A DNA stretch of 64,000 nt from an uncultured Bacilli bacterium (GTDB taxonomy: Bacteria; Bacillota_I; Bacilli_A; RF39; UBA660). The notes beneath the pieces were generated by a model. It ran no database searches. It was not told where the DNA came from and saw only the letters and a program-made list of their open reading frames with translations. The translations under genes were made by a program, and so were the position numbers. The DNA lies in the NCBI GenBank assembly GCA_934157235.1, contig CAKPHH010000004.1, forward strand, positions 4,585 to 68,584. The letters run 5' to 3'. Shown one piece after another: positions 27,919-41,464 of this stretch. How positions within the stretch are numbered: the first letter of the stretch is position 1; every line of letters starts with the position of its first letter.

Positions 27919-30234
27919 ATGAAAAATATAGAAAGATATACTCCAGATATAAAATGTGGATTAACTAATTATGAAGTCGATAAAAGAATAAAAGATAATT
28001 TAGTTAATATATATACTGAAGTGGGTACAAAGACTGTTTCAGAAATAGTAAAAGAAAATGTATTAACATTATTTAATATTATTAATGTAGTTTTAGCTAT
28101 TGCCGTTATATGTGTTGGATCATTTAAGAATTTGACATTTATAATAATTATTACAATTAATACTTTAATTAGTATTATTCAAGAACTTAGAAGTAAAAAA
28201 ACTTTGGATAAGTTAAAAGTAGTAGCGGCTTCTAAAGTGCATGTTATTAGAGATTCTATTGAAAAAGAAATTGGAATTAATGAGATTGTTTTGGATGATA
28301 TTATTAAAGTAGAAATAGGTAATCAGATCGTAGTTGATTCAATTATTAAAGATGGAGAAGTTGAAGTTGATGAGTCTTTTATTACAGGAGAAGCTGATAC
28401 TGTTTTTAAAAGAAAGGGTGATATGTTATTATCCGGTAGTTTTATAGTATCTGGTAAGGCAATATGTCAAGTAGAACATATTGGATATGATAATTATACA
28501 GCTAAGATTTCTAGTGATACTAAGTATATTAAAGCAGTTTCTTCAGAGATTATGCGAAGTTTAAATAAGATTATTTCGACAATATCATTTTTAATAGTTC
28601 CGGTAGGTATACTTTTATTTAGTAGACAGATGTATATAGAAGGAAATACAGTTTCACAAGCTGTTGTTTCGACTGTAGCGGCTTTAATTGGAATGATTCC
28701 CGAAGGACTAGTTTTACTTACAAGTACAGTTTTAGCAGTTAGTGTAATTAGACTTTCACAAAGAAAAGTATTAGTTCAAGATTTATATTGTATTGAGACT
28801 TTAGCTAGAGTTGATACTTTATGTTTAGATAAGACTGGTACTATAACTGAAGGTAAAATGGAAGTTATGGCGGAAGTTTTTGTTGAAGATATTAATATCA
28901 GTGAAATAATTGGAAATATTAATTATAATTTAGGAGATAATAATCCAACGGCAATCGCGTTACTTGATAAGTATGGAAAAAGTGATACTTTTGAAATTGT
29001 TGATAAGATGCCATTTTCTTCAGCTAAAAAATATTCGGGTATTGCTTTAAAAGATAAAGCTTATGTTGTAGGAGCAGCAGAGTTTATTTTGAAAAAGGAT
29101 GATAAATTCTTAAAGAAAGTAGAGGAGTATACTAATGAATATCGTGTTATTCTTTTAGCGGAAGCTTTAAATAAGCAACTTGATAATGTTAGACCCTTAG
29201 CACTACTTTTATTACAAGATAAAATTAGAAGTGATGCGAATGAAACATTACAATATTTTAGAGAGCAGGGTGTTGCATTAAAGATTATATCTGGGGACAA
29301 TCCTCATACAGTATATGGAATAGCTTGTAGGGCTGGTTTTAAGGAAAATGCTAAAATAGTTGATGCAACAACACTTGTTACTGATCAGGATATATTAGAT
29401 GCAGCTTGGGAATATGACATTTTTGGTAGAGTTACACCAGAACAAAAGAAAAAACTAGTTTTAGCTTTACAACATTTAGGACATACTGTAGCAATGACAG
29501 GTGATGGAGTTAATGATGTTTTAGCTTTGAAAAAAGCGGATTGTTCAATTGCAATGGCATCTGGTTCTGATTCAACTAAAAATGTTAGTCAACTAGTTTT
29601 ATTAGATTCGAATTTTTCATCTATGCCATATGTAGTAGCAGAGGGGAGAAGAACAATTAATAATATTGAAAAGAGTTCATCATTATTTTTAGTTAAAACA
29701 ATTTATGCGACATTGTTGGCTATAATCTTTATATTTATAGATATGCCATATCCATTTATACCAATTCAGTTGTCTTTAGCAAGTGCTGTTACGGTTGGAA
29801 TACCTTCCTTTATATTAGCACTTCAAGATAATTATGATTTGGTACAGAAGCATTTCTTAAAAAGAGTATTAAAAAGAGCAGTACCTCCAGCTTTTACAAT
29901 TATAATAAATATATTAGTAGTGTTTATTGCTAGTAAATTATTTAATTTTACGTATGAACAAACATCTACTTTATCAGCTGTGATTACAGGGTACGTAGCA
30001 TTTATGTTATTGTTTAAAACTTGTTTACCATTTAATAAGTTAAGAATAGCTTTATTTTCAACTATGGTACTACTATATATTACAGGGTTCTTTGGCTTTA
30101 GAAGTTTATTTTCATTTTCAGTATTGAACTTTAGAATGATAGTAATTATCTTGTTATGTATAGGATTTGCACACTTTATGTACTATTCATTTGAAAAAAT
30201 AATTAATTATTTAGAATCAAAAGTAAGAAAATAG
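27919..30234 (+). CDS. cation-transporting P-type ATPase
   Basis: DKTGTITEG phosphorylation motif, PEGL, TGDGVNDVLAL hinge motif; 771 aa. Confidence 0.9.
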   Translation: MKNIERYTPDIKCGLTNYEVDKRIKDNLVNIYTEVGTKTVSEIVKENVLTLFNIINVVLAIAVICVGSFKNLTFIIIITINTLISIIQELRSKKTLDKLKVVAASKVHVIRDSIEKEIGINEIVLDDIIKVEIGNQIVVDSIIKDGEVEVDESFITGEADTVFKRKGDMLLSGSFIVSGKAICQVEHIGYDNYTAKISSDTKYIKAVSSEIMRSLNKIISTISFLIVPVGILLFSRQMYIEGNTVSQAVVSTVAALIGMIPEGLVLLTSTVLAVSVIRLSQRKVLVQDLYCIETLARVDTLCLDKTGTITEGKMEVMAEVFVEDINISEIIGNINYNLGDNNPTAIALLDKYGKSDTFEIVDKMPFSSAKKYSGIALKDKAYVVGAAEFILKKDDKFLKKVEEYTNEYRVILLAEALNKQLDNVRPLALLLLQDKIRSDANETLQYFREQGVALKIISGDNPHTVYGIACRAGFKENAKIVDATTLVTDQDILDAAWEYDIFGRVTPEQKKKLVLALQHLGHTVAMTGDGVNDVLALKKADCSIAMASGSDSTKNVSQLVLLDSNFSSMPYVVAEGRRTINNIEKSSSLFLVKTIYATLLAIIFIFIDMPYPFIPIQLSLASAVTVGIPSFILALQDNYDLVQKHFLKRVLKRAVPPAFTIIINILVVFIASKLFNFTYEQTSTLSAVITGYVAFMLLFKTCLPFNKLRIALFSTMVLLYITGFFGFRSLFSFSVLNFRMIVIILLCIGFAHFMYYSFEKIINYLESKVRK

Positions 30235-30256
30235 TAAAAACACTTGGTTTTCTTAC

Positions 30257-30480
30257 TTTTTTTATTTATAAGGAATTTTTTCAAAGTAATAATGGTTTTT
30301 AATAAAATGTATGATTTTGTATTGACAAATATTTTCTTGTTTGATATTATGAAATCCGAGAAGCAGTTATTCTGGCTGAAAACTACAATAGATTGAAGTA
30401 AAACAATAGCAAAGTGAGTACGGAAGCGACTATCGAAATTTAAGCTTATGGAAAATAGAAGATACTTTACTTGTGAGAAA
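30257..30480 (+). mobile_element. tnpB-less miniature derivative of the IS200/IS605-family element (left-end segment with promoter fused to right-end/omega-RNA-like segment)
   Basis: 30257-30330 resembles the left end of the full element at 39550-39625 (shared TTTTTTTATTTATAAGGAATTTT, AATAAAAT...TATTGACAAA); 30408-30475 is ~86% identical to 40820-40886 immediately 3' of tnpB. Confidence 0.5.
30322..30350 (+). promoter_or_regulatory. consensus promoter TTGACA-17-TATTAT inside the miniature element
   Basis: Same architecture as tnpB promoter at 39615-39643. Confidence 0.6.
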
Positions 30481-30506
30481 TATATTTAAAAAAAATTAAT
30501 TTTCTC

Positions 30507-30535
30507 TTGCAAAAGTTTAAAAAATATTGTAAACT
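30507..30535 (+). promoter_or_regulatory. promoter of tRNA-Ile/Asn/Glu operon (TTGCAA-17-TAAACT)
   Basis: Hexamers at 30507-30512 and 30530-30535. Confidence 0.45.
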
Positions 30536-30555
30536 TAAGAAGTCAGTTAATTAAT

Positions 30556-30632
<77 letters not shown>

Positions 30633-30639
30633 TTAATTT

Positions 30640-30716
30640 GCCTCAATAGCTCAGTCGGTTAGAGCACTTGACTGTTAATCAAGGGGTCCTAGGTTCAAGT
30701 CCTAGTTGGGGCGCCA
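30640..30716 (+). tRNA. tRNA-Asn (GTT)
   Basis: GCCTCAATAGCTCAGTCGGTTAGAGC..., anticodon loop CTGTTAA, CCA encoded. Confidence 0.85.
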
Positions 30717-30719
30717 TAT

Positions 30720-30796
30720 GGCGAGTTGGTGAAGCGGCTTAACACACTGCCCTTTCACGGCAGCATTCACGGATTCGAATTCCGTACTCGTCACCA
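30720..30796 (+). tRNA. tRNA-Glu (TTC)
   Basis: Anticodon stem-loop CTGCC-CTTTCAC-GGCAG, T-loop TTCGAAT, CCA encoded. Confidence 0.8.
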
Positions 30797-30806
30797 TTTT
30801 AAAAGT

Positions 30807-30857
30807 AATTCCAGTTATACTGGATTTTTATTTGACCATTTTATTGGTCTTTTTTTG
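30807..30857 (+). terminator. two tandem intrinsic terminators between tRNA-Glu and tRNA-Ser
   Basis: TCCAG-ttata-CTGGA + T5, then GACCA-tttta-TGGTC + T7. Confidence 0.6.
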
Positions 30858-31003: not shown

Positions 31004-31113
31004 TAGATAATTAAACCTTGTTTATCAAGGTTTTTTTGTTTGTTTTTGAAGGTCAATTTCATATTCTTTTTAGGAACTTTTATGGTATAATTTTTAATAG
31101 GAGAGTTGATGCT

Positions 31114-34100
31114 ATGAATGATATGTATTTTGGGTTCTTAAAGAGATTTAATAAAATAAATAAATATTATAATTATTTAATTAAACAAACAAGAAAAAGC
31201 TTTTACGTGGGAATTACAAATGAATGGATAATTGATAATTTTTATTTATTAGCAGAACTTAAAACGGATATTGTTCGTGATAGAGTAGAAATATGTAAAA
31301 GTATAAAAGATACTAAGAATCTTTATTATACCCTTAGGCAGGTAGCAATTTCTAATAATTACAATATTCCTTTTAAAGTATTAGTGGCAGAATTGAAAAA
31401 GTATCAGAAAGATAATAAGATAAATCTTTCATATAGTAAAATTTCAGCTATTAAATATTTATTAGAATTTATTTATATAGAAAAATTATATTTACTTGCT
31501 TTAGATGAAGAAGAAAAACTACTTGTAAAAGAAAAAATTAGTAAAACAATAGATACTTGCAATTTGGATGAAGTAAAATTAAGTACTTTTACTGATAATA
31601 ATTTTGATGTTTATAATAATAAATATTATATTTATGAACTTAGTCAACAAATAAAAAGATTAGGAAATAAAAGTAATTATGTTTTTAAAGAGATAAATGA
31701 ATTGTTAGAGAGTAAAAATATTGGATTAAAGGAAATTATTAATGATTTTCATCAAGAAAAGATTTCTACTAATATTTTAATTTCTAATGTATTTGGAGAT
31801 TTAAAAAGATTATTAGAGCTTAGTGACGAAGAGTTATTTAAAAATGTTTCTTTTACAGAAAAACTATTATTGATGGATAAAGTTTATAAGAGTATGACTA
31901 TTGAATCTAAGGTGCTTTATCGAAGACAAATTACGAAGTTAGCTAAGAGAAAAAGATGTAGTGAATATGAGTTATTAGAAAAGCTTTATGGTATAAGTTT
32001 AAAAGAAGAGAGGCATATTGGTTTTTATTTATTTAAAGAGAAGAATAATATACTTAAAACTTATATATATTTGTTTGTCATTTTAATATTAACTTTAAGT
32101 ATTAGTTTATTTTTATCTAACTATTTTATAGATCTTAGATGGTTGGGATTTTTAATATTACTTATTCCAGTTAATCAATTAGTAATAAGAATTATTAATA
32201 CTATTTTAGTTAGAATAGTACCTATTAATGTATTACCTAAGATGGATTATTCATTAGGATTACCAACTGAAGCAACAACGATGGTTGTAATACCAACTAT
32301 TATTAGTAGTACAGATAAAATTAAAGAGATGTTTGATACTTTAGAGACATTTTATTTGATTAATAAATCTAGTAATTTATACTTTACTTTATTAGGAGAT
32401 GTTAAGGAGTCTTCTAAAGGTGTTGAGGATTATGATAGTAAGTTTTCTTTATATGGAGAAAGTTATGCAGCTAATTTAAATAAAAAATATGGGAAAGATT
32501 TATTTTACTTTGTTTATCGTAAGATATTTTTTAATGATAAAGAGAATAAGTATTTAGGATATGAGAGAAAAAGAGGAGCGTTAATTCAATTTAATAAAAT
32601 ATTATTAGGAAAAGTAACACCTTCTTTTAGTAAAAAGAATTTCTTTGTTAATACTTTGGAAAATAAAAAGCTAAATATTAAATATGTTATTACATTAGAT
32701 ACAGATACGAGATTAGTATTAAGTTCGGCTCTTAATTTAGTAGGAGCTATGGCTCATCCTTTAAATAAACCGATTTTAAATAAAGAAGGTACTAAAGTTA
32801 TTTCTGGATATGGATTAATGCAACCAAGAGTAGATGTAGATATAGAATCTACTAATAAGAGTTTATATAGTCAAATATTTGCAGGAGTAGGAGGCTTTGA
32901 TACTTATTCAGCTTTTGTACCTGATCTTTATCAAGATTTATTTAGAGAAGGTAGTTTTATTGGAAAAGGTATTTATGATTTAGAGGTTTTTGATAAGTTG
33001 TTAGCAGAAACATTTCCAGATAATCTTATTTTGTCGCATGATTTAATAGAAGGTAATTATTTAAGAGTAGGGTATTTAGCTGATATTTCTTTAATAGATA
33101 ATTTTCCATCTTCCTTTTTAACAGATGTTAGAAGACATCATAGATGGGCTCGAGGAGATGTACAAATTATTGGATGGCTTTTAAATAAAGTTTTAAATAA
33201 AAAGAAAGAGAAAGTTAAAAATCCAATAAATGTATTAGGTAAATTTAAAATACTTGATAATATTGTAAGAATGTTTCTATTTCCAACTTTACTTTTAATT
33301 TTACTTTTAGCAACTAATATGAAGTTTAGCAAATCATTATTATGGATTGGGTTTGTAATATTAGAAGTAGCAATTTCAATTATATTTTTCTTTGGAGAAA
33401 AACTAACACAGAAAAATGAAACTAAAAAAGTTACAGTCTATTATAAAAACTTGTTATTGGGAGGAAGAAGTTTGTTATATAGAGCTTATATTACTTTTAT
33501 TACGCTTCCTTTTTATACAGTACTTTATATGGATGCTTTCTTTAGAACTTTATATAGACTTTTTAAGACTCATAAAAATTTACTTAATTGGGTTAGTTCG
33601 GAAGAAGTTTCTAAAAATACAGATAATAGTTTAAAAAGTTATTTAAGACTATTTATTCCAAATTATGTAGTCATAATTCTTCTTATTATTGTTGGTTTGA
33701 TAAGTAATAATTTTATAACTTATATTATGGCTTTTATGTTTTTGACAGCACCATTTATTTTATATTTAGTTAGTTTAGATAAGACTTCTAATAATAAAGT
33801 TAGTGATAATGATTTAGAACAATTAGAAGTATTAGCTTTAGATACTTGGAAATATTTTTATGATAATATAAAGGAAGAATATCATTATTTAATACCGGAT
33901 AATTATCAGGAAAATAGAGAGAAAAAGTTAGATTTAAGAACATCTCCAACAGCGATAGGGTATTCTTTAACTAGTGTTATTTCAGCGTATGAAATGAATT
34001 TTATTGAGTTAGATGAAGCTTTTAATTTACTTGGAGATATTTTGAAGAGTGTTGATTCTTTAGAAAAGTGGAATGGACATTTATATAATTGGTATAATAT

Positions 34101-37100
34101 AGAAAATTGTCAGGTCCTTAATCCTAGATTTGTTTCAACTGTTGATTCAGGTAACTTTATAGCGAGTGTTGTGATAGCAAGAGAGTTTTTAAATAAGTAT
34201 GAAAACTTAGAATTAGTTAAACTTTGTGATAAGTTGATTAATAATGCTAATTTTAAGAAATTATATACGAAGAGATCTGTATTTAGTATTGGGTATGATG
34301 ATAATGAAGGAAAACTTTCAATTTATAATTATAATAATTTTGCGAGTGAAGCTCGTTTAACTAGTTATTTAGCTATTTGTAAGGGTGATGTTTCAGTTAA
34401 ACATTGGTTTTCTTTGGATAAGTCTTTAACAATGTATAAAGGACATAAGGGACTTATTTCCTGGTCTGGTACTTCATTTGAGTATTATATGCCATTTCTT
34501 TTTATGAAGAATTATCCAAATACTTTGTTGGATGAAGCTTATCAGTTTGCTTATTTCTGTCAAAAAAGTTATATAGAAAAGATATCTAAAAAACTGCCTT
34601 GGGGAATTAGTGAATCAGCTTATAATGAACTTGATGATGCCTTAAATTATAAGTATAAGGCGTTTTCGACTCCTTACTTAAAAATGAAAGAAGATAAGGA
34701 TAAGAGAATAGTTATTTCTCCATATGCATCAATTATGGCTTTAGAGTTATTTCCTAAAGAAGTAATTTCTAATATTTCGAAATATAAAGAAATGAATATG
34801 TTTGATAAATATGGTTTGTATGAGTCATATGACTGTGATAATGAGACTTGCGTTAAGGCATATTTTGCTCATCACCAAGGAATGATTTTAATGGGATTAG
34901 TTAATTATTTGAAAGAGGATTCTCTTAAGAATTATTTTCATCAAAATACGTTAATTAAGACTTTTGAAATTTTACTTAAAGAAAAAGTACAATTAAGGAC
35001 AGATATTGATATGAAGATATCAGATTATAAAAAATATAATTATCAAAAAGAAGAAATATCTAATGATATTAGGACCTTTAATTATATTTCGGATATGCCA
35101 GAATTTTCAGTTTTATCTAATAAAAAATATTGTTTACTTATTAATGATAAGGGTAATGGTTTTTCAAGATATAGAACTTTACAATTAAATAGATATCGTA
35201 AAGCTAGTGAACAAGATCATGGAATTTATATGTATATTAGAGATTTAGATACTAATTATGTATGGTCTAATACTTACGCTCCTATTAATAAAAAGAGTGA
35301 TAATTATGAAGTGGTGTTTGCTTCTGATAAGATTAAATATTTAAGAACTGATGGGAAGATTATGACAACTACAGAGATTGTTGTTACTCCTTATCATAAT
35401 GCTGAAATTAGAAAAGTTACTTTTAAGAATAATAGTGATGTTTCTCGGACTTTGGAACTTACAACTTATATGGAAGTGATATTATCAGAAAATATGGATG
35501 ATGTTTCGCATAGGGCTTTTAATAATATGTTTGTTTCTAGTGAATGGGATAGTAAGAGTAATTCTTTGATTATGATGAGAAAAGGTAAGGGAGATTCTCT
35601 TGTTAATAACTATATGGTTAGTAGACTAATTGTTTTAGATCCTATGGATAAATATAGTTATGAAACAGAAAGAAGTAATTTTATTGGTAGAGGTCAAAGG
35701 CTTAATAATCCAATAAGTATTTCTAAAAAACTTAGTAATTATGTAGGAGATAATTTAGACCCTATTAGTAGTATTAGAAATAAAATAGAAATAGCTGCTA
35801 ATGAGAGTAGAGAAGTATACTTTATAGTTGGGTTTGGTAGAAGTAGAGAGCAAATAAGAGAGATTATTAATTCTTATAATACACCTAGAGATATTAATAA
35901 TACCTTTAAATTAGCTTCTTTAAATAATGTTATTAATACTAAGAGTTTAAATATTAAGGGAGAAGAATTAAGACTATATAATATAATGCTTAACTATTTA
36001 TATCAGACAACTAAAATAGCACTTACAGAAGAGAGATTAGATTTATTAAGAAAAAATAGTTTAGCACAACCAGGATTATGGAAATTTGGAATTAGTGGAG
36101 ATAGACCAATTATATTAGTAGATATTAGTGATATAAGTGATTTACCATTTGTTTTTAGTATACTTAAAGCATTTGAATACTATAAAAACAATTCAATATT
36201 TGTGGATGTAGTTATTATTAATAATGAAGGTGAATATAGAGAAGTTATTAATAAAGAGATAGATGATGAGATATATAGAATTTATTCAGTTAATAGTTTT
36301 TATCATACGCCTGGTATTATTAAAGTTATTGATGGAGGAAGTTTATCAAGAGAAGAAATTAGTTTATTTGGAATTGTTCCTAGACTTAGATTTATTATAA
36401 AAGATCATATTACTTTAGAAGAAGCTGTTTTAGAGTTACAAAAGAAGAATAAAATTAGTGATTATGAAGAGAAGTTGTATGAGAAAAATAGCGAAACTTC
36501 TAATTTAGATAAGTTAGAGTTTGATAATGGCTATGGAGGCTTTAAAAATAAGGGAAGGGAGTATGTTATTTATAATAATAAAACTCCAAAGCCTTGGAGT
36601 AATGTTATAGCGAATGAAGAGTTTGGTACTATTATTACTAATAATGGAGCTGGATTTACTTATTTTGATAATTCTTCAGAATTTAAAATAACTTCTTGGA
36701 CTAATGATTTAGTTGTTGATGATTGTTCAGAAGGGTTTAAATTTAATGATTTAATCTTTAAACCAGATTCATGTGTTCATGGAATGGGATATAGTATTTT
36801 AAAGAGTGAGTCAAATGATTTGAAAAAGGAAATTATAGAATTTGTTTCAGTAAATGAACCAGTTAAATTATATTTAGTAAAATTAACTAATAAGACTAAA
36901 TGGAAGAAGAATATTAAAGTTAATTTTTGGATTAATCCAACACTTGGTAATTTTGATGAGAAAACAGCTAGACATATTTTATCGGAGTTTATGGAAGAGG
37001 ATAATTTCTTGAGACTTCGTAATGCTTATAGTATTAATTATAGTGATGTTTATGTTTATATGTCTTCTAGTGAAAAAATTACAAAGGCTTCTTATGATAA

Positions 37101-38763
37101 GATTTTAATTAAGAGTATTGAGAATGATATTGTACTTAATGGAGAAGAAGAGAAGACTTTAATATTTACATTGGGCGCTAATAGAAGTGAATGTATTGGA
37201 GAAGGTTTAGTTAGAAAATATAGTGATATTGAGTATGCTTTAAAGGCTTATGAGAAGGTATGTGAGTATTGGAATGATACTTTAGAAAGAGTTAAGGTTA
37301 AGAGTCCAGATAAGAGTTTTGATTATATGATTAATGGTTGGTACTTATATCAAACTATATCTTCTAGAATTATGGCTAAAGCAGGTTTTTATCAAGTATC
37401 TGGAGCATTTGGTTATAGAGATCAATTACAGGATGCGATGAATATTGTTTTAGTTAGACCAGATATGACTAGAAAACAAATTCTTATAAATGCAGAACAT
37501 CAATTTATAGAGGGGGATGTTTTACATTGGTGGCATGAGGAGAGTAAATTTGGACTTAGAAGTCGCTATATGGATGATTTCTTATGGCTAGTCTATGCAA
37601 CTATTAATTATATTGAAGTAACAGGAGATAGTGATATATTAGAAGTTAAGGTTCCTTATGTTACATGTGATTTACTTGGTACTTATGAATATGAAAAGAC
37701 TATTTATTATAATTATTCTAATAATAGTGATACACTTCTTAAGCATTGTTTTAAATCTTTAAGTTTATCAATGTCTAATTTAGGGAGTCATGGTTTACCA
37801 TTAATGAATGGTGGAGACTGGAATGATGGAATGAATAGAGTTGGTATTAAAGGTAAGGGAGAAAGTGTTTGGTTAGGATTCTTCTTATACAATATTATTG
37901 ATAAATTTATAGAGATGATTAAGGATAATAAACTTAATGTCGATACTTTACTGTATGAAAGGTTTAATGAAAAATTAAGAGATAATTTAAATAAATATGG
38001 TTGGGATAAGGACTATTATTTAAGAGCTTATTTTGATAATGGAGATAAACTTGGTAGTCGTGATAATAGTGAATGTAAGATTGATTTAATATCACAGAGT
38101 TTTTCGATTATATCTTCTGTTGCATCAAAAGAAAGAGGTTTAAAAGTAATTGAGGAAGTTGAGAAGAATTTAGTTGATAGTGATAATGGAATTATAAAAT
38201 TATTAAATCCGGCTTTTAAAAAGTCTTTAAATAATCCTGGATATATTATGAATTATCATGAAGGTATTAGAGAAAATGGGGGACAATATACTCATGCGGT
38301 TAGTTGGTATATCATGGCTTTAATAAAAATGGGATATAGGGAGAAGGCTTATCAATATTATCAAATGATTAATCCGATTAATAGAACTTTAGATAAAGAA
38401 TTAGTTTCTAAATATAATGGAGAGCCTTATGTTATTGCGGCTGATATTTATGCTAATAAGAGTTTTTTAGGACAGGCTGGTTGGACTTGGTATACAGGTT
38501 CTGCAGGATGGTTTTATAATGTGGCTCTTAGAGATATTTTAGGTATTAAGAAATTTGGTAAGAAATTAAAAATAGAACCTAGTTTTCCAGATGGTTGGAA
38601 AGAGTTTAAAATTACTTATATATTTATGGATACTGTTTATAAAATAGAAGTTCATAAAGATGGTAAGGATGAAACTATTGTTGATGGATGTATTCAAAAG
38701 CGTCATAGTATTGAGTTGATTAACGATAAAAAAACTCATGATATTAACATTTATCGAAAATAA
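31114..38763 (+). CDS. cyclic beta-1,2-glucan synthase-like giant protein (membrane glycosyltransferase + GH94 glycoside phosphorylase domains)
   Basis: 2549 aa from ATG 31114 (RBS AGGAGAG; extended -10 TGGTATAAT at 31083-31091); TM segments, glycosyltransferase DxD (TLDTDTRL) and RRHHRWARGD (Q/RxxRW) motifs, C-terminal GH94 signature GGDWNDGMN. Confidence 0.8.
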   Translation: MNDMYFGFLKRFNKINKYYNYLIKQTRKSFYVGITNEWIIDNFYLLAELKTDIVRDRVEICKSIKDTKNLYYTLRQVAISNNYNIPFKVLVAELKKYQKDNKINLSYSKISAIKYLLEFIYIEKLYLLALDEEEKLLVKEKISKTIDTCNLDEVKLSTFTDNNFDVYNNKYYIYELSQQIKRLGNKSNYVFKEINELLESKNIGLKEIINDFHQEKISTNILISNVFGDLKRLLELSDEELFKNVSFTEKLLLMDKVYKSMTIESKVLYRRQITKLAKRKRCSEYELLEKLYGISLKEERHIGFYLFKEKNNILKTYIYLFVILILTLSISLFLSNYFIDLRWLGFLILLIPVNQLVIRIINTILVRIVPINVLPKMDYSLGLPTEATTMVVIPTIISSTDKIKEMFDTLETFYLINKSSNLYFTLLGDVKESSKGVEDYDSKFSLYGESYAANLNKKYGKDLFYFVYRKIFFNDKENKYLGYERKRGALIQFNKILLGKVTPSFSKKNFFVNTLENKKLNIKYVITLDTDTRLVLSSALNLVGAMAHPLNKPILNKEGTKVISGYGLMQPRVDVDIESTNKSLYSQIFAGVGGFDTYSAFVPDLYQDLFREGSFIGKGIYDLEVFDKLLAETFPDNLILSHDLIEGNYLRVGYLADISLIDNFPSSFLTDVRRHHRWARGDVQIIGWLLNKVLNKKKEKVKNPINVLGKFKILDNIVRMFLFPTLLLILLLATNMKFSKSLLWIGFVILEVAISIIFFFGEKLTQKNETKKVTVYYKNLLLGGRSLLYRAYITFITLPFYTVLYMDAFFRTLYRLFKTHKNLLNWVSSEEVSKNTDNSLKSYLRLFIPNYVVIILLIIVGLISNNFITYIMAFMFLTAPFILYLVSLDKTSNNKVSDNDLEQLEVLALDTWKYFYDNIKEEYHYLIPDNYQENREKKLDLRTSPTAIGYSLTSVISAYEMNFIELDEAFNLLGDILKSVDSLEKWNGHLYNWYNIENCQVLNPRFVSTVDSGNFIASVVIAREFLNKYENLELVKLCDKLINNANFKKLYTKRSVFSIGYDDNEGKLSIYNYNNFASEARLTSYLAICKGDVSVKHWFSLDKSLTMYKGHKGLISWSGTSFEYYMPFLFMKNYPNTLLDEAYQFAYFCQKSYIEKISKKLPWGISESAYNELDDALNYKYKAFSTPYLKMKEDKDKRIVISPYASIMALELFPKEVISNISKYKEMNMFDKYGLYESYDCDNETCVKAYFAHHQGMILMGLVNYLKEDSLKNYFHQNTLIKTFEILLKEKVQLRTDIDMKISDYKKYNYQKEEISNDIRTFNYISDMPEFSVLSNKKYCLLINDKGNGFSRYRTLQLNRYRKASEQDHGIYMYIRDLDTNYVWSNTYAPINKKSDNYEVVFASDKIKYLRTDGKIMTTTEIVVTPYHNAEIRKVTFKNNSDVSRTLELTTYMEVILSENMDDVSHRAFNNMFVSSEWDSKSNSLIMMRKGKGDSLVNNYMVSRLIVLDPMDKYSYETERSNFIGRGQRLNNPISISKKLSNYVGDNLDPISSIRNKIEIAANESREVYFIVGFGRSREQIREIINSYNTPRDINNTFKLASLNNVINTKSLNIKGEELRLYNIMLNYLYQTTKIALTEERLDLLRKNSLAQPGLWKFGISGDRPIILVDISDISDLPFVFSILKAFEYYKNNSIFVDVVIINNEGEYREVINKEIDDEIYRIYSVNSFYHTPGIIKVIDGGSLSREEISLFGIVPRLRFIIKDHITLEEAVLELQKKNKISDYEEKLYEKNSETSNLDKLEFDNGYGGFKNKGREYVIYNNKTPKPWSNVIANEEFGTIITNNGAGFTYFDNSSEFKITSWTNDLVVDDCSEGFKFNDLIFKPDSCVHGMGYSILKSESNDLKKEIIEFVSVNEPVKLYLVKLTNKTKWKKNIKVNFWINPTLGNFDEKTARHILSEFMEEDNFLRLRNAYSINYSDVYVYMSSSEKITKASYDKILIKSIENDIVLNGEEEKTLIFTLGANRSECIGEGLVRKYSDIEYALKAYEKVCEYWNDTLERVKVKSPDKSFDYMINGWYLYQTISSRIMAKAGFYQVSGAFGYRDQLQDAMNIVLVRPDMTRKQILINAEHQFIEGDVLHWWHEESKFGLRSRYMDDFLWLVYATINYIEVTGDSDILEVKVPYVTCDLLGTYEYEKTIYYNYSNNSDTLLKHCFKSLSLSMSNLGSHGLPLMNGGDWNDGMNRVGIKGKGESVWLGFFLYNIIDKFIEMIKDNKLNVDTLLYERFNEKLRDNLNKYGWDKDYYLRAYFDNGDKLGSRDNSECKIDLISQSFSIISSVASKERGLKVIEEVEKNLVDSDNGIIKLLNPAFKKSLNNPGYIMNYHEGIRENGGQYTHAVSWYIMALIKMGYREKAYQYYQMINPINRTLDKELVSKYNGEPYVIAADIYANKSFLGQAGWTWYTGSAGWFYNVALRDILGIKKFGKKLKIEPSFPDGWKEFKITYIFMDTVYKIEVHKDGKDETIVDGCIQKRHSIELINDKKTHDINIYRK

Positions 38764-39511: not shown

Positions 39512-39614
39512 AATTATTAAAATAGAAGCAAACGTAGTGATATGTTTGCTTTTTTTTATTTATAAGGAATTTTCTCTTCGAATGTGTAATTAGAATAAAA
39601 TATGCTATTGCATA

Positions 39615-39643
39615 TTGACAAACGTTTGTTTGTATATTATTAT
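39615..39643 (+). promoter_or_regulatory. tnpB promoter TTGACA-17-TATTAT within IS left end
   Basis: Perfect -35, 17-nt spacer, TATTAT. Confidence 0.6.
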
Positions 39644-39672
39644 AGTAAGTCAAGATGATGGAGGTGTATTAC

Positions 39673-40803
39673 ATGTATAAAGCCTATAAGTTTAGATTGT
39701 ATCCTAATAGTTATCAAAAACAACTGCTAAGTAAAACTTTTGGTTGTGTTAGACTTATTTATAATTATTTTTTGGATAAGTGTATGAAAAGTGGTTTTAT
39801 AAGGGCTTTTGACATGTGTATAGAAATAAAAGAATTGTATGCTGAGTATCCATTTTTGAAAGAAGTAGATTCTTGCAGTTTAAGATGTGCAGTTTTTAAT
39901 TTAGAGGATGCTTTTAAGAATTACTTTTCTAAACGTAGTAATTATCCTAGGTTTAAGAGTAAATATAATAAACAAAGTTATAGAACTACATGTATTAGGA
40001 GTACATATAAAAATAGAGAATATAGTAATATAGAATTAGATTTAGTAAATAAAAAAGTTAAATTACCCAAACTGGGATTAGTTGATATAAGAGGTTATAG
40101 AACTTTAAAAGAGATAAAGGGAAAAATTATAAATGCAACTATTGAAAAAGAAACAACTAATAAATACTATGTAAGCATTGTAGTTGAAGAAAAAGAGTTT
40201 GGACTCAGTAAAGTTACTCCACAAAGTATAGTTGGGATAGACTTAGGCATAAAAGATTTAGTAGTAACTAGTGATGGAGAAAAATATAATAATCCAAAAG
40301 AGTTATTAAAAAGAGAAAAGAGATTAAAAAGACTACAACGGAAGCTAGCGAGACAAATAAAGGGTAGTAATAACTATTACAAGACTAAAGAAAGAATCGC
40401 TAGAATTTATAGTAAAATTAAAAATAGTAGAAAACATAATATAAATAATATTGTAAATAAACTTGTAAAAGAACATGATATAGTAGTTAGTGAAAAACTA
40501 AAAGTACAAGAAATGACACATAATCACAATTTAGCCAAAAATATTTTAGATGCCAGTTTCGATAAAATATGTCAAATGCTCAAATGGAAATGCAGTGTAT
40601 TAGGAAAATATTATTATCAAGTAGATACATATTTTCCAAGTAGTAAGAAATGTAGTCATTGTGACAATACAACAAGTAAAACGAATGATTTGAATGTTAG
40701 AAACTGGATATGTGATAAGTGTGGATGTGAAAATGATCGAGATATAAATGCAAGTATAAATATTATGTTTGAAGGATTAAAAATGTATTATCAAAGTAAT
40801 TAA
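39673..40803 (+). CDS. tnpB: TnpB (IS605 OrfB) RNA-guided nuclease-like protein
   Basis: N-terminal KAYKFRLYPNSYQKQLLSKTFGCVRLIYN, RuvC-like core, C-terminal zinc finger CSHCDNT...CDKCGCENDRDINASINI; RBS GGAGGTG. Confidence 0.85.
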   Translation: MYKAYKFRLYPNSYQKQLLSKTFGCVRLIYNYFLDKCMKSGFIRAFDMCIEIKELYAEYPFLKEVDSCSLRCAVFNLEDAFKNYFSKRSNYPRFKSKYNKQSYRTTCIRSTYKNREYSNIELDLVNKKVKLPKLGLVDIRGYRTLKEIKGKIINATIEKETTNKYYVSIVVEEKEFGLSKVTPQSIVGIDLGIKDLVVTSDGEKYNNPKELLKREKRLKRLQRKLARQIKGSNNYYKTKERIARIYSKIKNSRKHNINNIVNKLVKEHDIVVSEKLKVQEMTHNHNLAKNILDASFDKICQMLKWKCSVLGKYYYQVDTYFPSSKKCSHCDNTTSKTNDLNVRNWICDKCGCENDRDINASINIMFEGLKMYYQSN

Positions 40804-40804
40804 A

Positions 40805-40915
40805 TAAATATGAATAAATAAAGTGAGTACGGTAGCGACTATCGGAATTTAAGCCTATGGAGAATAGAGGATACTCTATCTATGAAGTAGGAATTTTGAT
40901 CGGTGACGACCAAAG
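40805..40915 (+). ncRNA. IS right end / candidate omega-RNA (reRNA) scaffold plus adjacent guide region
   Basis: Conserved block AAAGTGAGTACGGTAGCGACTATCGGAATTTAAGCCTATGGAGAATAGAGGATACTC directly 3' of tnpB, repeated at 30408-30475; followed by terminator GACAAAT-ttta-ATTTGTC + T4 (40917-40940). Confidence 0.35.
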
Positions 40916-40987
40916 CGACAAATTTTAATTTGTCTTTTGTTCGGAAATGTGGTATAATTTAGAACGTTTGAGGGGGATAAGGATATT

Positions 40988-41464
40988 ATGATAGAAAGTA
41001 GTCGTTATGAAATAATTGATTCAATAGGAAGAAATTGTATAGCAGTACCTATTTATGCAGATGAAGGTAGATTAGAGGATCGAACTTTACATGAAAAAGA
41101 TTTTGATGAATGTATGAAAACAAGTATTATAACAGCAATTCGTTATGATTTAGAACTTGTAGGAGTACAAATTATTGCTTCAGAAAATGGTAGAAAAAGA
41201 ACAACTGATTATTATATTGGAGATGTTGCGGCAGTTGATGCTGAAGGTAGACCAAGTAGAGTTAGAGTTGGACAATTCAGTTATGGGGCTGGAGACTTTA
41301 GATCTTATGCTGATGTTGGCTCTAGAAAACATAGTATAGAAATTTGTCCTGGAAGAGTTTCTTTAGCGAAAAAATGTGCTCAAATATTAGAATTGCCATA
41401 TATTTTTCCACTTGAAGAAGTAACTAAAAGAGAAGTACCAAAGGAGAAAGTATTGAAACGTTAA
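40988..41464 (+). CDS. hypothetical protein (158 aa), GC-richer than surroundings
   Basis: RBS GAGGGGGA; extended -10 TGTGGTATAAT upstream; terminator TAGCC-gaaa-GGCTA + T7 at 41469-41491. Confidence 0.5.
   Translation: MIESSRYEIIDSIGRNCIAVPIYADEGRLEDRTLHEKDFDECMKTSIITAIRYDLELVGVQIIASENGRKRTTDYYIGDVAAVDAEGRPSRVRVGQFSYGAGDFRSYADVGSRKHSIEICPGRVSLAKKCAQILELPYIFPLEEVTKREVPKEKVLKR

Follow-up and report, generated by a model that had tools for sequence, protein, structure and literature searches.

What is the unit of roughly 210 bp, upstream of a tRNA operon, that joins a near-consensus promoter to sequence resembling the RNA-coding end of a tnpB element? A sequence-only reading of the window (the whole stretch of 64,000 nucleotides analyzed here) had described it as a miniature, left end plus right end, of the IS200/IS605-type element that stands 9 kb away and had suggested that it could serve either as a mobile non-autonomous derivative or as a domesticated guide RNA. 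Having compared the unit with full copies of the element and with orthologous loci, we conclude that the unit is most probably a fossil that can no longer move, rather than a functioning mini-transposon or stand-alone guide RNA. The locus comprises the following features.

30219–30265, plus strand: intrinsic terminator of the host P-type ATPase gene, plus AT (stem 30219–30260, T-run 30257–30263)
30266–30351, plus strand: left-end (LE) remnant, complete from the LE junction to the −10 box and colinear with the LE of full copies
30352–30387, plus strand: 36-nt segment without detectable element homology, either internal-deletion junction or filler, at which tnpB (~1.15 kb) is gone
30388–30476, plus strand: truncated right-end (RE)/omega-RNA-scaffold remnant, equivalent to 40797–40885 and confident from 30405
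30477–30555, plus strand: intergenic host DNA that includes the native promoter of the tRNA operon, near-identical in empty sites
30556–30796, plus strand: tRNA-Ile(GAT), tRNA-Asn(GTT), tRNA-Glu(TTC) operon (ARAGORN)

The terminator, whose stem folds at −13.3 kcal/mol (RNAfold), is the insertion target together with the AT and lies outside the element. Of the scaffold stems, the RE remnant keeps A with one broken pair, only the 5′ strand of B, and C in degraded form. Beyond it, the tRNA operon's own promoter consists of TTGCAA (30507–30512), a 17-nt spacer and TAAACT (30530–30535); this host interval is near-identical in the empty-site loci L019–L021, L027 and L030 and recognizable in L024. 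The ~210 bp between the unit's junctions hold no protein gene, the sole overlap being a spurious 50-aa TTG ORF (30244–30396) that starts in host DNA upstream of the LE junction.

The full copy in the same window, which served as the reference, has three parts.

39560–40942, plus strand: full tnpB-only IS200/IS605-type element, with ends set by comparing independent insertions
39673–40803, plus strand: tnpB, 376 aa from an ATG behind GGAGG (the 382-aa ORF begins at 39655)
40814–40942, plus strand: complete RE and presumed omega-RNA scaffold (stems A–D, terminal hairpin, CTTTTGTTC), from RNAalifold on 10 full REs

Element ends were defined from the independent insertions L002/L004, L005, L006, L007, L008 and L009, and the copies other than the window's, at unrelated sites, were obtained through a 21-nt pattern and through TnpB relatives (L002/L004, L005, L006, L007 (= L001), L008 and L009–L018). 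The tnpB product matches the Pfam families OrfB_IS605, Cas12f1-like TNB and HTH_OrfB_IS605 (6e-28, 5e-17 and 5e-16) and can be aligned end to end with ISDra2 TnpB (8bf8/8exa, E = 1e-61), the RuvC motifs GxDxG, E and DRD falling in register; judged by its sequence, 39655/39673–40803 is a bona fide TnpB with an intact RuvC triad. Because TnpB relatives at 71–94% identity are mostly 375–376 aa long, we take the ATG at 39673, behind GGAGG, as the real start of the gene.

In full copies, LE homology starts after a T-run of 6–8 nt and R-Y, and continues with TTATAAGGAA; the reference element itself follows a host terminator, T-run and AT (39524–39559; terminator scan). The LE is common to six independent sites, L007 lacking it because its contig ends there, and the RE, with a covarying terminal hairpin and CTTTTGTTC, is common to seven. 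This RE is a 129-nt block found in all copies and starting ~10 nt past the stop codon (40814–40942 in the window). Across 10 full RE sequences 73 columns are invariant, and RNAalifold predicts 26 pairs, five of them with compensatory changes. Stem A is CGGTAG/CTATCG, stem B (CCTAT/GTAGG) encloses stem C (AGA-TAGAG/CTCTA-TCT), and stem D is variable. The stem of the terminal hairpin varies among copies (GACAAAT/ATTTGTC, AGATT/AATCT, AATAAAAT.../...ATTTTAT), and CTTTTGTTC forms the RE terminus in every full copy. Such a right end is as expected for a TnpB omega-RNA scaffold that reaches the transposon boundary, and the predicted guide would run from 40943.

Some observations concern the full copies themselves. 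A possible hybrid promoter lies at 40930–40958 of the window (plus strand), where a −35-like TTGTCT contributed by the RE terminal hairpin is followed, at a spacing of exactly 17 nt, by a TG-extended TATAAT of host origin; it would serve the gene at 40988–41464, which belongs to no Pfam family. L004 and L002 carry copies at one shared site in related strains, and CTATCGG at L004 3675–3683 is CTAACGT at L002 13153–13161, breaking one pair of the otherwise invariant stem A; some full-length copies may thus be losing scaffold integrity. The 71%-identical TnpB copy of L009–L018 (gene 2501–3628) stands at one identical site in each of the ten contigs shown, flanked by an AA_kinase/DcuC fusion gene and an ABC transporter. 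These contigs derive from gut metagenomes, human and bovine, and the copy looks fixed and stable, not like an element on the move.

We then asked how far the small unit matches this reference. Both blocks of similarity lie where the sequence-only reading had placed them, and both exceed chance in blastn, nhmmer and shuffle comparisons. In pairwise alignment of the RE block, 30411–30469 and 40820–40878 are identical at 53 of 59 positions (51/56 in blastn within the window, E = 1.9e-16), and nhmmer with a profile built from seven full elements finds 30388–30476 at E = 1.6e-14. The stretch 30405–30476 aligns to RE model positions 1–68, the first ~65 nt of the 129-nt RE, and the match is weak from 30388. 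On the left, an exact 23-mer (30257–30279 = 39551–39573; blastn E = 1.9e-6) extends into an alignment with the full copy that stays colinear through AATAAAAT, TATTGACAAA and TATTAT. With the T-run excluded, the LE local score is 46, against 18.2 ± 2.9 for dinucleotide shuffles (maximum 36; 0/2000 reach 46); in nhmmer the LE alone is weak (E = 0.03–0.07 after bias correction). The seven-element profile covers 30259–30350 (LE) and 30388–30476 (RE) and nothing else. The TTGACA-17-TATTAT promoter, said to be identical at the two loci, was indeed located by scan at both 30322–30350 (11/12 matches, with TG) and 39615–39643.

As proposed, the unit derives from the same IS family and has no tnpB between its two blocks: an LE with its intact promoter precedes RE-derived sequence, both in one orientation. 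The segment 30352–30387, outside nhmmer coverage, scores 15 against the tnpB 3′ end, and its shuffles score 16.0 ± 2.7. An internal deletion through microhomology (ATATTATG) with the tnpB 3′ end, a route that would make 30352–30410 coding-derived, was set aside as unproven, the middle segment having no significant similarity. Rfam searches of both loci, at the gathering threshold and at E ≤ 10, returned no family at the small unit or the full copy.

Orthologous loci, gathered via the adjacent P-type ATPase, reveal in which lineages the unit is present and where its borders lie. Sorted by ATPase identity, they read as follows.

At least 98%: window, L003, L028, L029; remnant present
96%: L030; site empty
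95%: L027; site empty
88%: L019–L021; site empty
74%: L024–L026; site empty

The remnant is thus confined to lineages whose ATPase is at least 98% identical, and the empty sites in related lineages identify the small unit as an insertion after the T-run of the ATPase terminator. The hairpin and TTTTTTTAT of that terminator are also present in the empty sites L019, L024, L027 and L030. Empty sites share one order, with lineage-variable intervening bases: terminator stem, TTTTTTTAT, agtattct(a/t)(t/a)tattgc..., then the host promoter, TTGCAA-17-TA(A/G)(A/G)(C/A)T across them, and tRNA-Ile. Ahead of the promoter, L019–L021 and L030 read ...attgcagttggg, aaat(a/g)tatttaaaaa. Comparison of filled (TTTTTTTAT|TTATAAGG) with empty (TTTTTTTAT|AGTATTCT) sites makes the left junction precise. 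It also divides the reported left-end match: element homology holds from 30266, but the first 9 nt of the 23-mer (TTTTTTTAT) are the tail of the host terminator and, since empty sites have them too, reflect target-site choice rather than the element. Insertion after the host TTGCA, followed by slippage deletion in the T-run, was judged less parsimonious than insertion after T-run+AT, where all the other copies sit.

The right side of the unit is of a different kind. Element-derived sequence stops at CTTGTGA (30476), the equivalent of 40885, and host sequence picks up again at GAAATATATTT (30477), with ~18 nt of host DNA (agtattctattattgcag) gone relative to the empty sites. Lost with it are the last ~56 nt of the RE, which all ten full REs keep, comprising the 3′ strand of stem B, stem D, the terminal hairpin and the invariant CTTTTGTTC end. 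Thus the right-end block that had been reported is real, but the full RE ends at 40942, not 40886, and the unit matches its 5′ half only; the claim of a complete LE+RE miniature fails here, with the RE cut at the equivalent of 40885 and the subterminal hairpin and CTTTTGTTC terminus absent. A covariance model of the RE scores the remnant at 53 bits and the full copy at 162, and fits well only at model positions 1–68; the remainder of the forced alignment falls on host DNA. A hairpin at 30474–30509 (GAGAAA...TTTCTC + TTGC) was considered as a diverged RE terminal hairpin and rejected, the same sequence being present in empty-site lineages, and the model's forced global alignment over this interval is an artefact.

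The comparison of insertion sites also bears on how this TnpB element family chooses its targets. In six of seven independent insertions the element directly follows a stem-loop and T-run, the shape of an intrinsic terminator, then R-Y (AT, GT, AC); hairpin, T-run and AT belong to the host, as the empty site makes plain. The terminator-edge sites are listed below.

Window, 39524–39559
Window, 30219–30265
L005, ~2352–2389
L006, ~2337–2370
L008, ~2350–2389
L009, ~2387–2422

This pattern suggests a T-rich TAM or target of the form T-run+R+Y, with a preference for the 3′ edge of terminators. In L022 (4838–4950) and L023 (2569–2659), both on the minus strand, the same ATPase terminator contains the right end of a copy of the element in reverse orientation, following TTTTTTAC on the other strand. 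These contigs, which both end inside the element, come from a related species whose ATPase is 82% identical, and this second independent insertion makes the ATPase terminator a repeated target. The terminator-targeting observation may serve TnpB biology more than the remnant itself.

Divergence between the window and L028 separates the two ends of the unit. The middle and RE-derived part carries 12 substitutions in 125 positions, and the LE/promoter part one in 88 and one 2-nt indel (Fisher p = 0.017, LE vs RE part). In the adjacent ATPase gene, divergence is 12.6% at third positions of amino-acid-identical codons and 17.7% at 4-fold sites; the LE falls below the 12.6% rate (binomial P ~1e-4), and the host tRNA-promoter region 30477–30555 has no substitution at all (0/79). 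This contrast rests on small counts from two diverged host lineages and one near-identical one. The RE-derived part has diverged about as much as third codon positions, less than 4-fold sites, and appears to drift neutrally. Of 45 positions within the aligned part of the scaffold that are invariant in full copies down to 71% TnpB identity, the remnant has altered five in L003, six in the window and nine in L028. Stem A pair 20–28 is broken in all three remnant lineages, and pair 56–61 is also broken in the window. Pair 49–67, by contrast, has changed in a compensatory manner from G-C to A-U on both sides, which was probably inherited from a functional parent copy but could hint at some retained structure. 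Folded as a single sequence, the predicted transcript 30357–30555 is no stabler than its shuffles (z = +0.51).

Taken together, these data make it probable that 30266–30476 is a single-copy, internally deleted, 3′-truncated fossil of the IS200/IS605-type tnpB element that is intact at 39560–40942. In a recent ancestor of the species, a copy would have landed directly behind the ATPase terminator's T-run+AT, with tRNA-Ile-Asn-Glu downstream of it. An internal deletion with its breakpoint just past the −10 box would then have removed tnpB, and one deletion, on the simplest view, would have taken both the 3′-terminal ~56 nt of the RE and ~18 nt of the host DNA next to it; we infer the order of these deletions by parsimony. 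Excision by a Y1 transposase, as the IS200/IS605 mechanism is established, requires the RE hairpin and the cleavage end. Loss of the RE subterminal hairpin and cleavage end would have put Y1 TnpA excision out of reach, and loss of the guide-proximal half of the scaffold would have ended any service as a TnpB guide RNA. The LE promoter would still transcribe through the remnant into the tRNA genes, leaving the remnant as a ~200-nt 5′ leader that RNase P is expected to remove.

This last step raises the reading that survives best beside simple decay, namely that the LE has been co-opted. The LE with its near-consensus promoter is the sole element-derived part that looks maintained. No terminator is predicted between the LE promoter (which ends at 30350) and the tRNA genes, the only terminator-like sites lying at 30810–30849 and 31013, and LE transcripts, if made, would run into tRNA-Ile-Asn-Glu; from the arrangement of signals, the LE promoter may now read into that operon. 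On the co-option reading the promoter, perhaps the whole 86-nt LE, would be under purifying selection as an additional promoter of the tRNA operon, and the half-scaffold would be a disposable leader. We regard this as possible but doubtful. In a more remote version of the idea, RNA of the 5′ half-scaffold would titrate or modulate the resident TnpB.

Other features of the tRNA locus were seen in passing. In L019 (4051–5016) and L020 (3394–4359), from the 88% lineage, the locus has received a further mobile element, an rve-family (DDE) transposase gene that separates tRNA-Glu from tRNA-Ser in the same cluster. Directly past the cluster, the window encodes a 2581-aa ORF (31018–38763, plus strand) with orthologues in L024 and L028; these carry Glycoamylase, GH94 beta-supersandwich and Glyco_hydro_94 matches and resemble a giant glucan phosphorylase or synthase.

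Far less probable than co-option is a domesticated stand-alone omega-RNA, in which the LE promoter makes a ~130-nt RNA whose 3′ flank guides the TnpB 9 kb away. In its favor are an intact, conserved, near-consensus promoter, 90% identity to the full copy over the first ~65 nt of the scaffold, and a TnpB in the window with its RuvC triad; gene-less PATE-like derivatives have also been described, often encoding omega-RNAs which TnpB proteins of other elements would have to use in trans (PMC10055086). The guide-proximal half of the scaffold is absent, however, and in ISDra2 the scaffold nucleotides −5 to −3, beside the guide, pair with the 5′ region into a pseudoknot that the WED and RuvC domains of TnpB clamp and recognize (PMC10097598); we infer the need for this end from ISDra2, the closest solved homologue (PMC10097598). 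The supposed guide (ATATTTAAAAAAAATTAA...) is ancestral host sequence, unchanged in lineages without the insertion. What remains of the scaffold has lost invariant positions and pairs, diverges near the third-codon-position rate and folds no better than shuffles, which speaks against the proposed domestication. In sum, the remnant offers RE-derived sequence and lacks a complete scaffold, a guide segment and signs of purifying selection; with a scaffold that has no 3′ half and runs into ancestral host DNA, TnpB guidance is very unlikely.

Slightly more improbable again is that the unit is an intact non-autonomous MITE/PATE-type derivative, LE and RE without a gene, that a TnpA encoded elsewhere could mobilize. 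Its interior is gene-free, its LE is complete from a precise junction, its RE-derived sequence is correctly oriented, and PATE-like elements are known in the IS200/IS605 family (PMC10055086). The site is moreover a hot spot, given the opposite-orientation full copy in the same terminator of the related species (L022/L023). Against mobility, the RE terminal hairpin and CTTTTGTTC end are missing along with the ~18 nt of host DNA; with no intact right end the unit is not mobilizable, and the missing RE end therefore leaves a remnant that is neither excisable like a PATE nor able to present a guide. No further copies turned up in the material searched: the 64-kb window holds one remnant copy, none appears in the other loci among the 20 sources scanned with the RE model, and pattern scans of genomes and metagenomes gave only the orthologous locus L003 and full elements. 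Scans of viral contigs (DNA pattern and TnpB protein) and BLAST against plasmids and phages returned nothing, and none of the ten small ORFs scanned in the window matched Y1_Tnp.

Chance or generic promoter–terminator similarity in AT-rich DNA, which would have some footing in the 9 of 23 identical left-end bases that are host terminator tail and in the weak LE-only nhmmer result (E = 0.03–0.07), has a negligible probability and is contradicted by the RE block (E = 1.6e-14 to 1.9e-16), the LE shuffles (0/2000) and the colinear blocks of like orientation, and already refuted by the empty sites, which show the whole unit to be an insertion; the resemblance is not limited to promoter or terminator sequence, the outcome that would have undone the original proposal.

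Read as a fossil, the unit documents how a tnpB-only element decays, by internal deletion and loss of one end, and how a tRNA operon can end up downstream of a leftover IS promoter that reads towards it. It also counsels caution, in that a promoter beside omega-RNA-like sequence marks a guide-RNA gene only if the scaffold reaches the transposon boundary, and comparison with empty sites of close relatives settles such cases fast. PATE-like derivatives being already described, even the most favorable outcome of the sequence-only reading would not have been new.

Elsewhere in the window, a full-length OLE (ornate large extremophilic) RNA occupies 7523–8129 (plus strand; Rfam, 383 bits). The window is from an AT-rich gut bacterium, and public records assign its proteins, the P-type ATPase among them, to Tenericutes/Mycoplasmatota. 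SpoIIIAH-, SepF- and DivIVA-family proteins are also encoded in the window.

Several known systems frame the fossil. Solo IS-end remnants can leave an outward or residual promoter beside host genes. Like them, the unit sets an IS-derived near-consensus promoter upstream of a tRNA operon and conserves it while the rest decays; here, though, the tRNA operon keeps its ancestral TTGCAA-17-TAAACT promoter, and the activity of the LE promoter is a prediction. TldR-type domesticated TnpB–guide systems (PMC10705468) are likewise IS200/IS605-derived RNA-guide components fixed at a host locus, but keep a complete scaffold with its guide and a nearby gene for the partner protein, none of which the remnant has. 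Closer in origin are the PATE-like derivatives of Geobacillus stearothermophilus (Meers et al. 2023, PMC10055086), which also arose from a tnpB-carrying IS and are gene-less; as in them, LE and RE/omega-RNA-derived sequence keep their native order. PATEs retain both ends and often a complete omega-RNA, whereas the remnant was found as a single copy, with an RE ~56 nt short, adjoining host DNA deleted and its RNA-like part decaying.

The full copy invites comparison with ISDra2 TnpB and its omega-RNA (8bf8/8exa/8h1j; PMC10097598, PMC8612924), to which its TnpB aligns full-length. Its conserved, structured RE of ~129 nt after tnpB is comparable to the 116-nt ISDra2 scaffold; of this RE the remnant preserves just the 5′ ~65 nt. 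In ISDra2 the scaffold and the tnpB 3′ end overlap, but here nearly all of the conserved RE block follows the stop codon. Upstream of the LE the flank differs as well: it is TTGAT in ISDra2 and T-run+R+Y in the present family, at seven insertion sites and, as deduced from the RE flank of L022, at an eighth.
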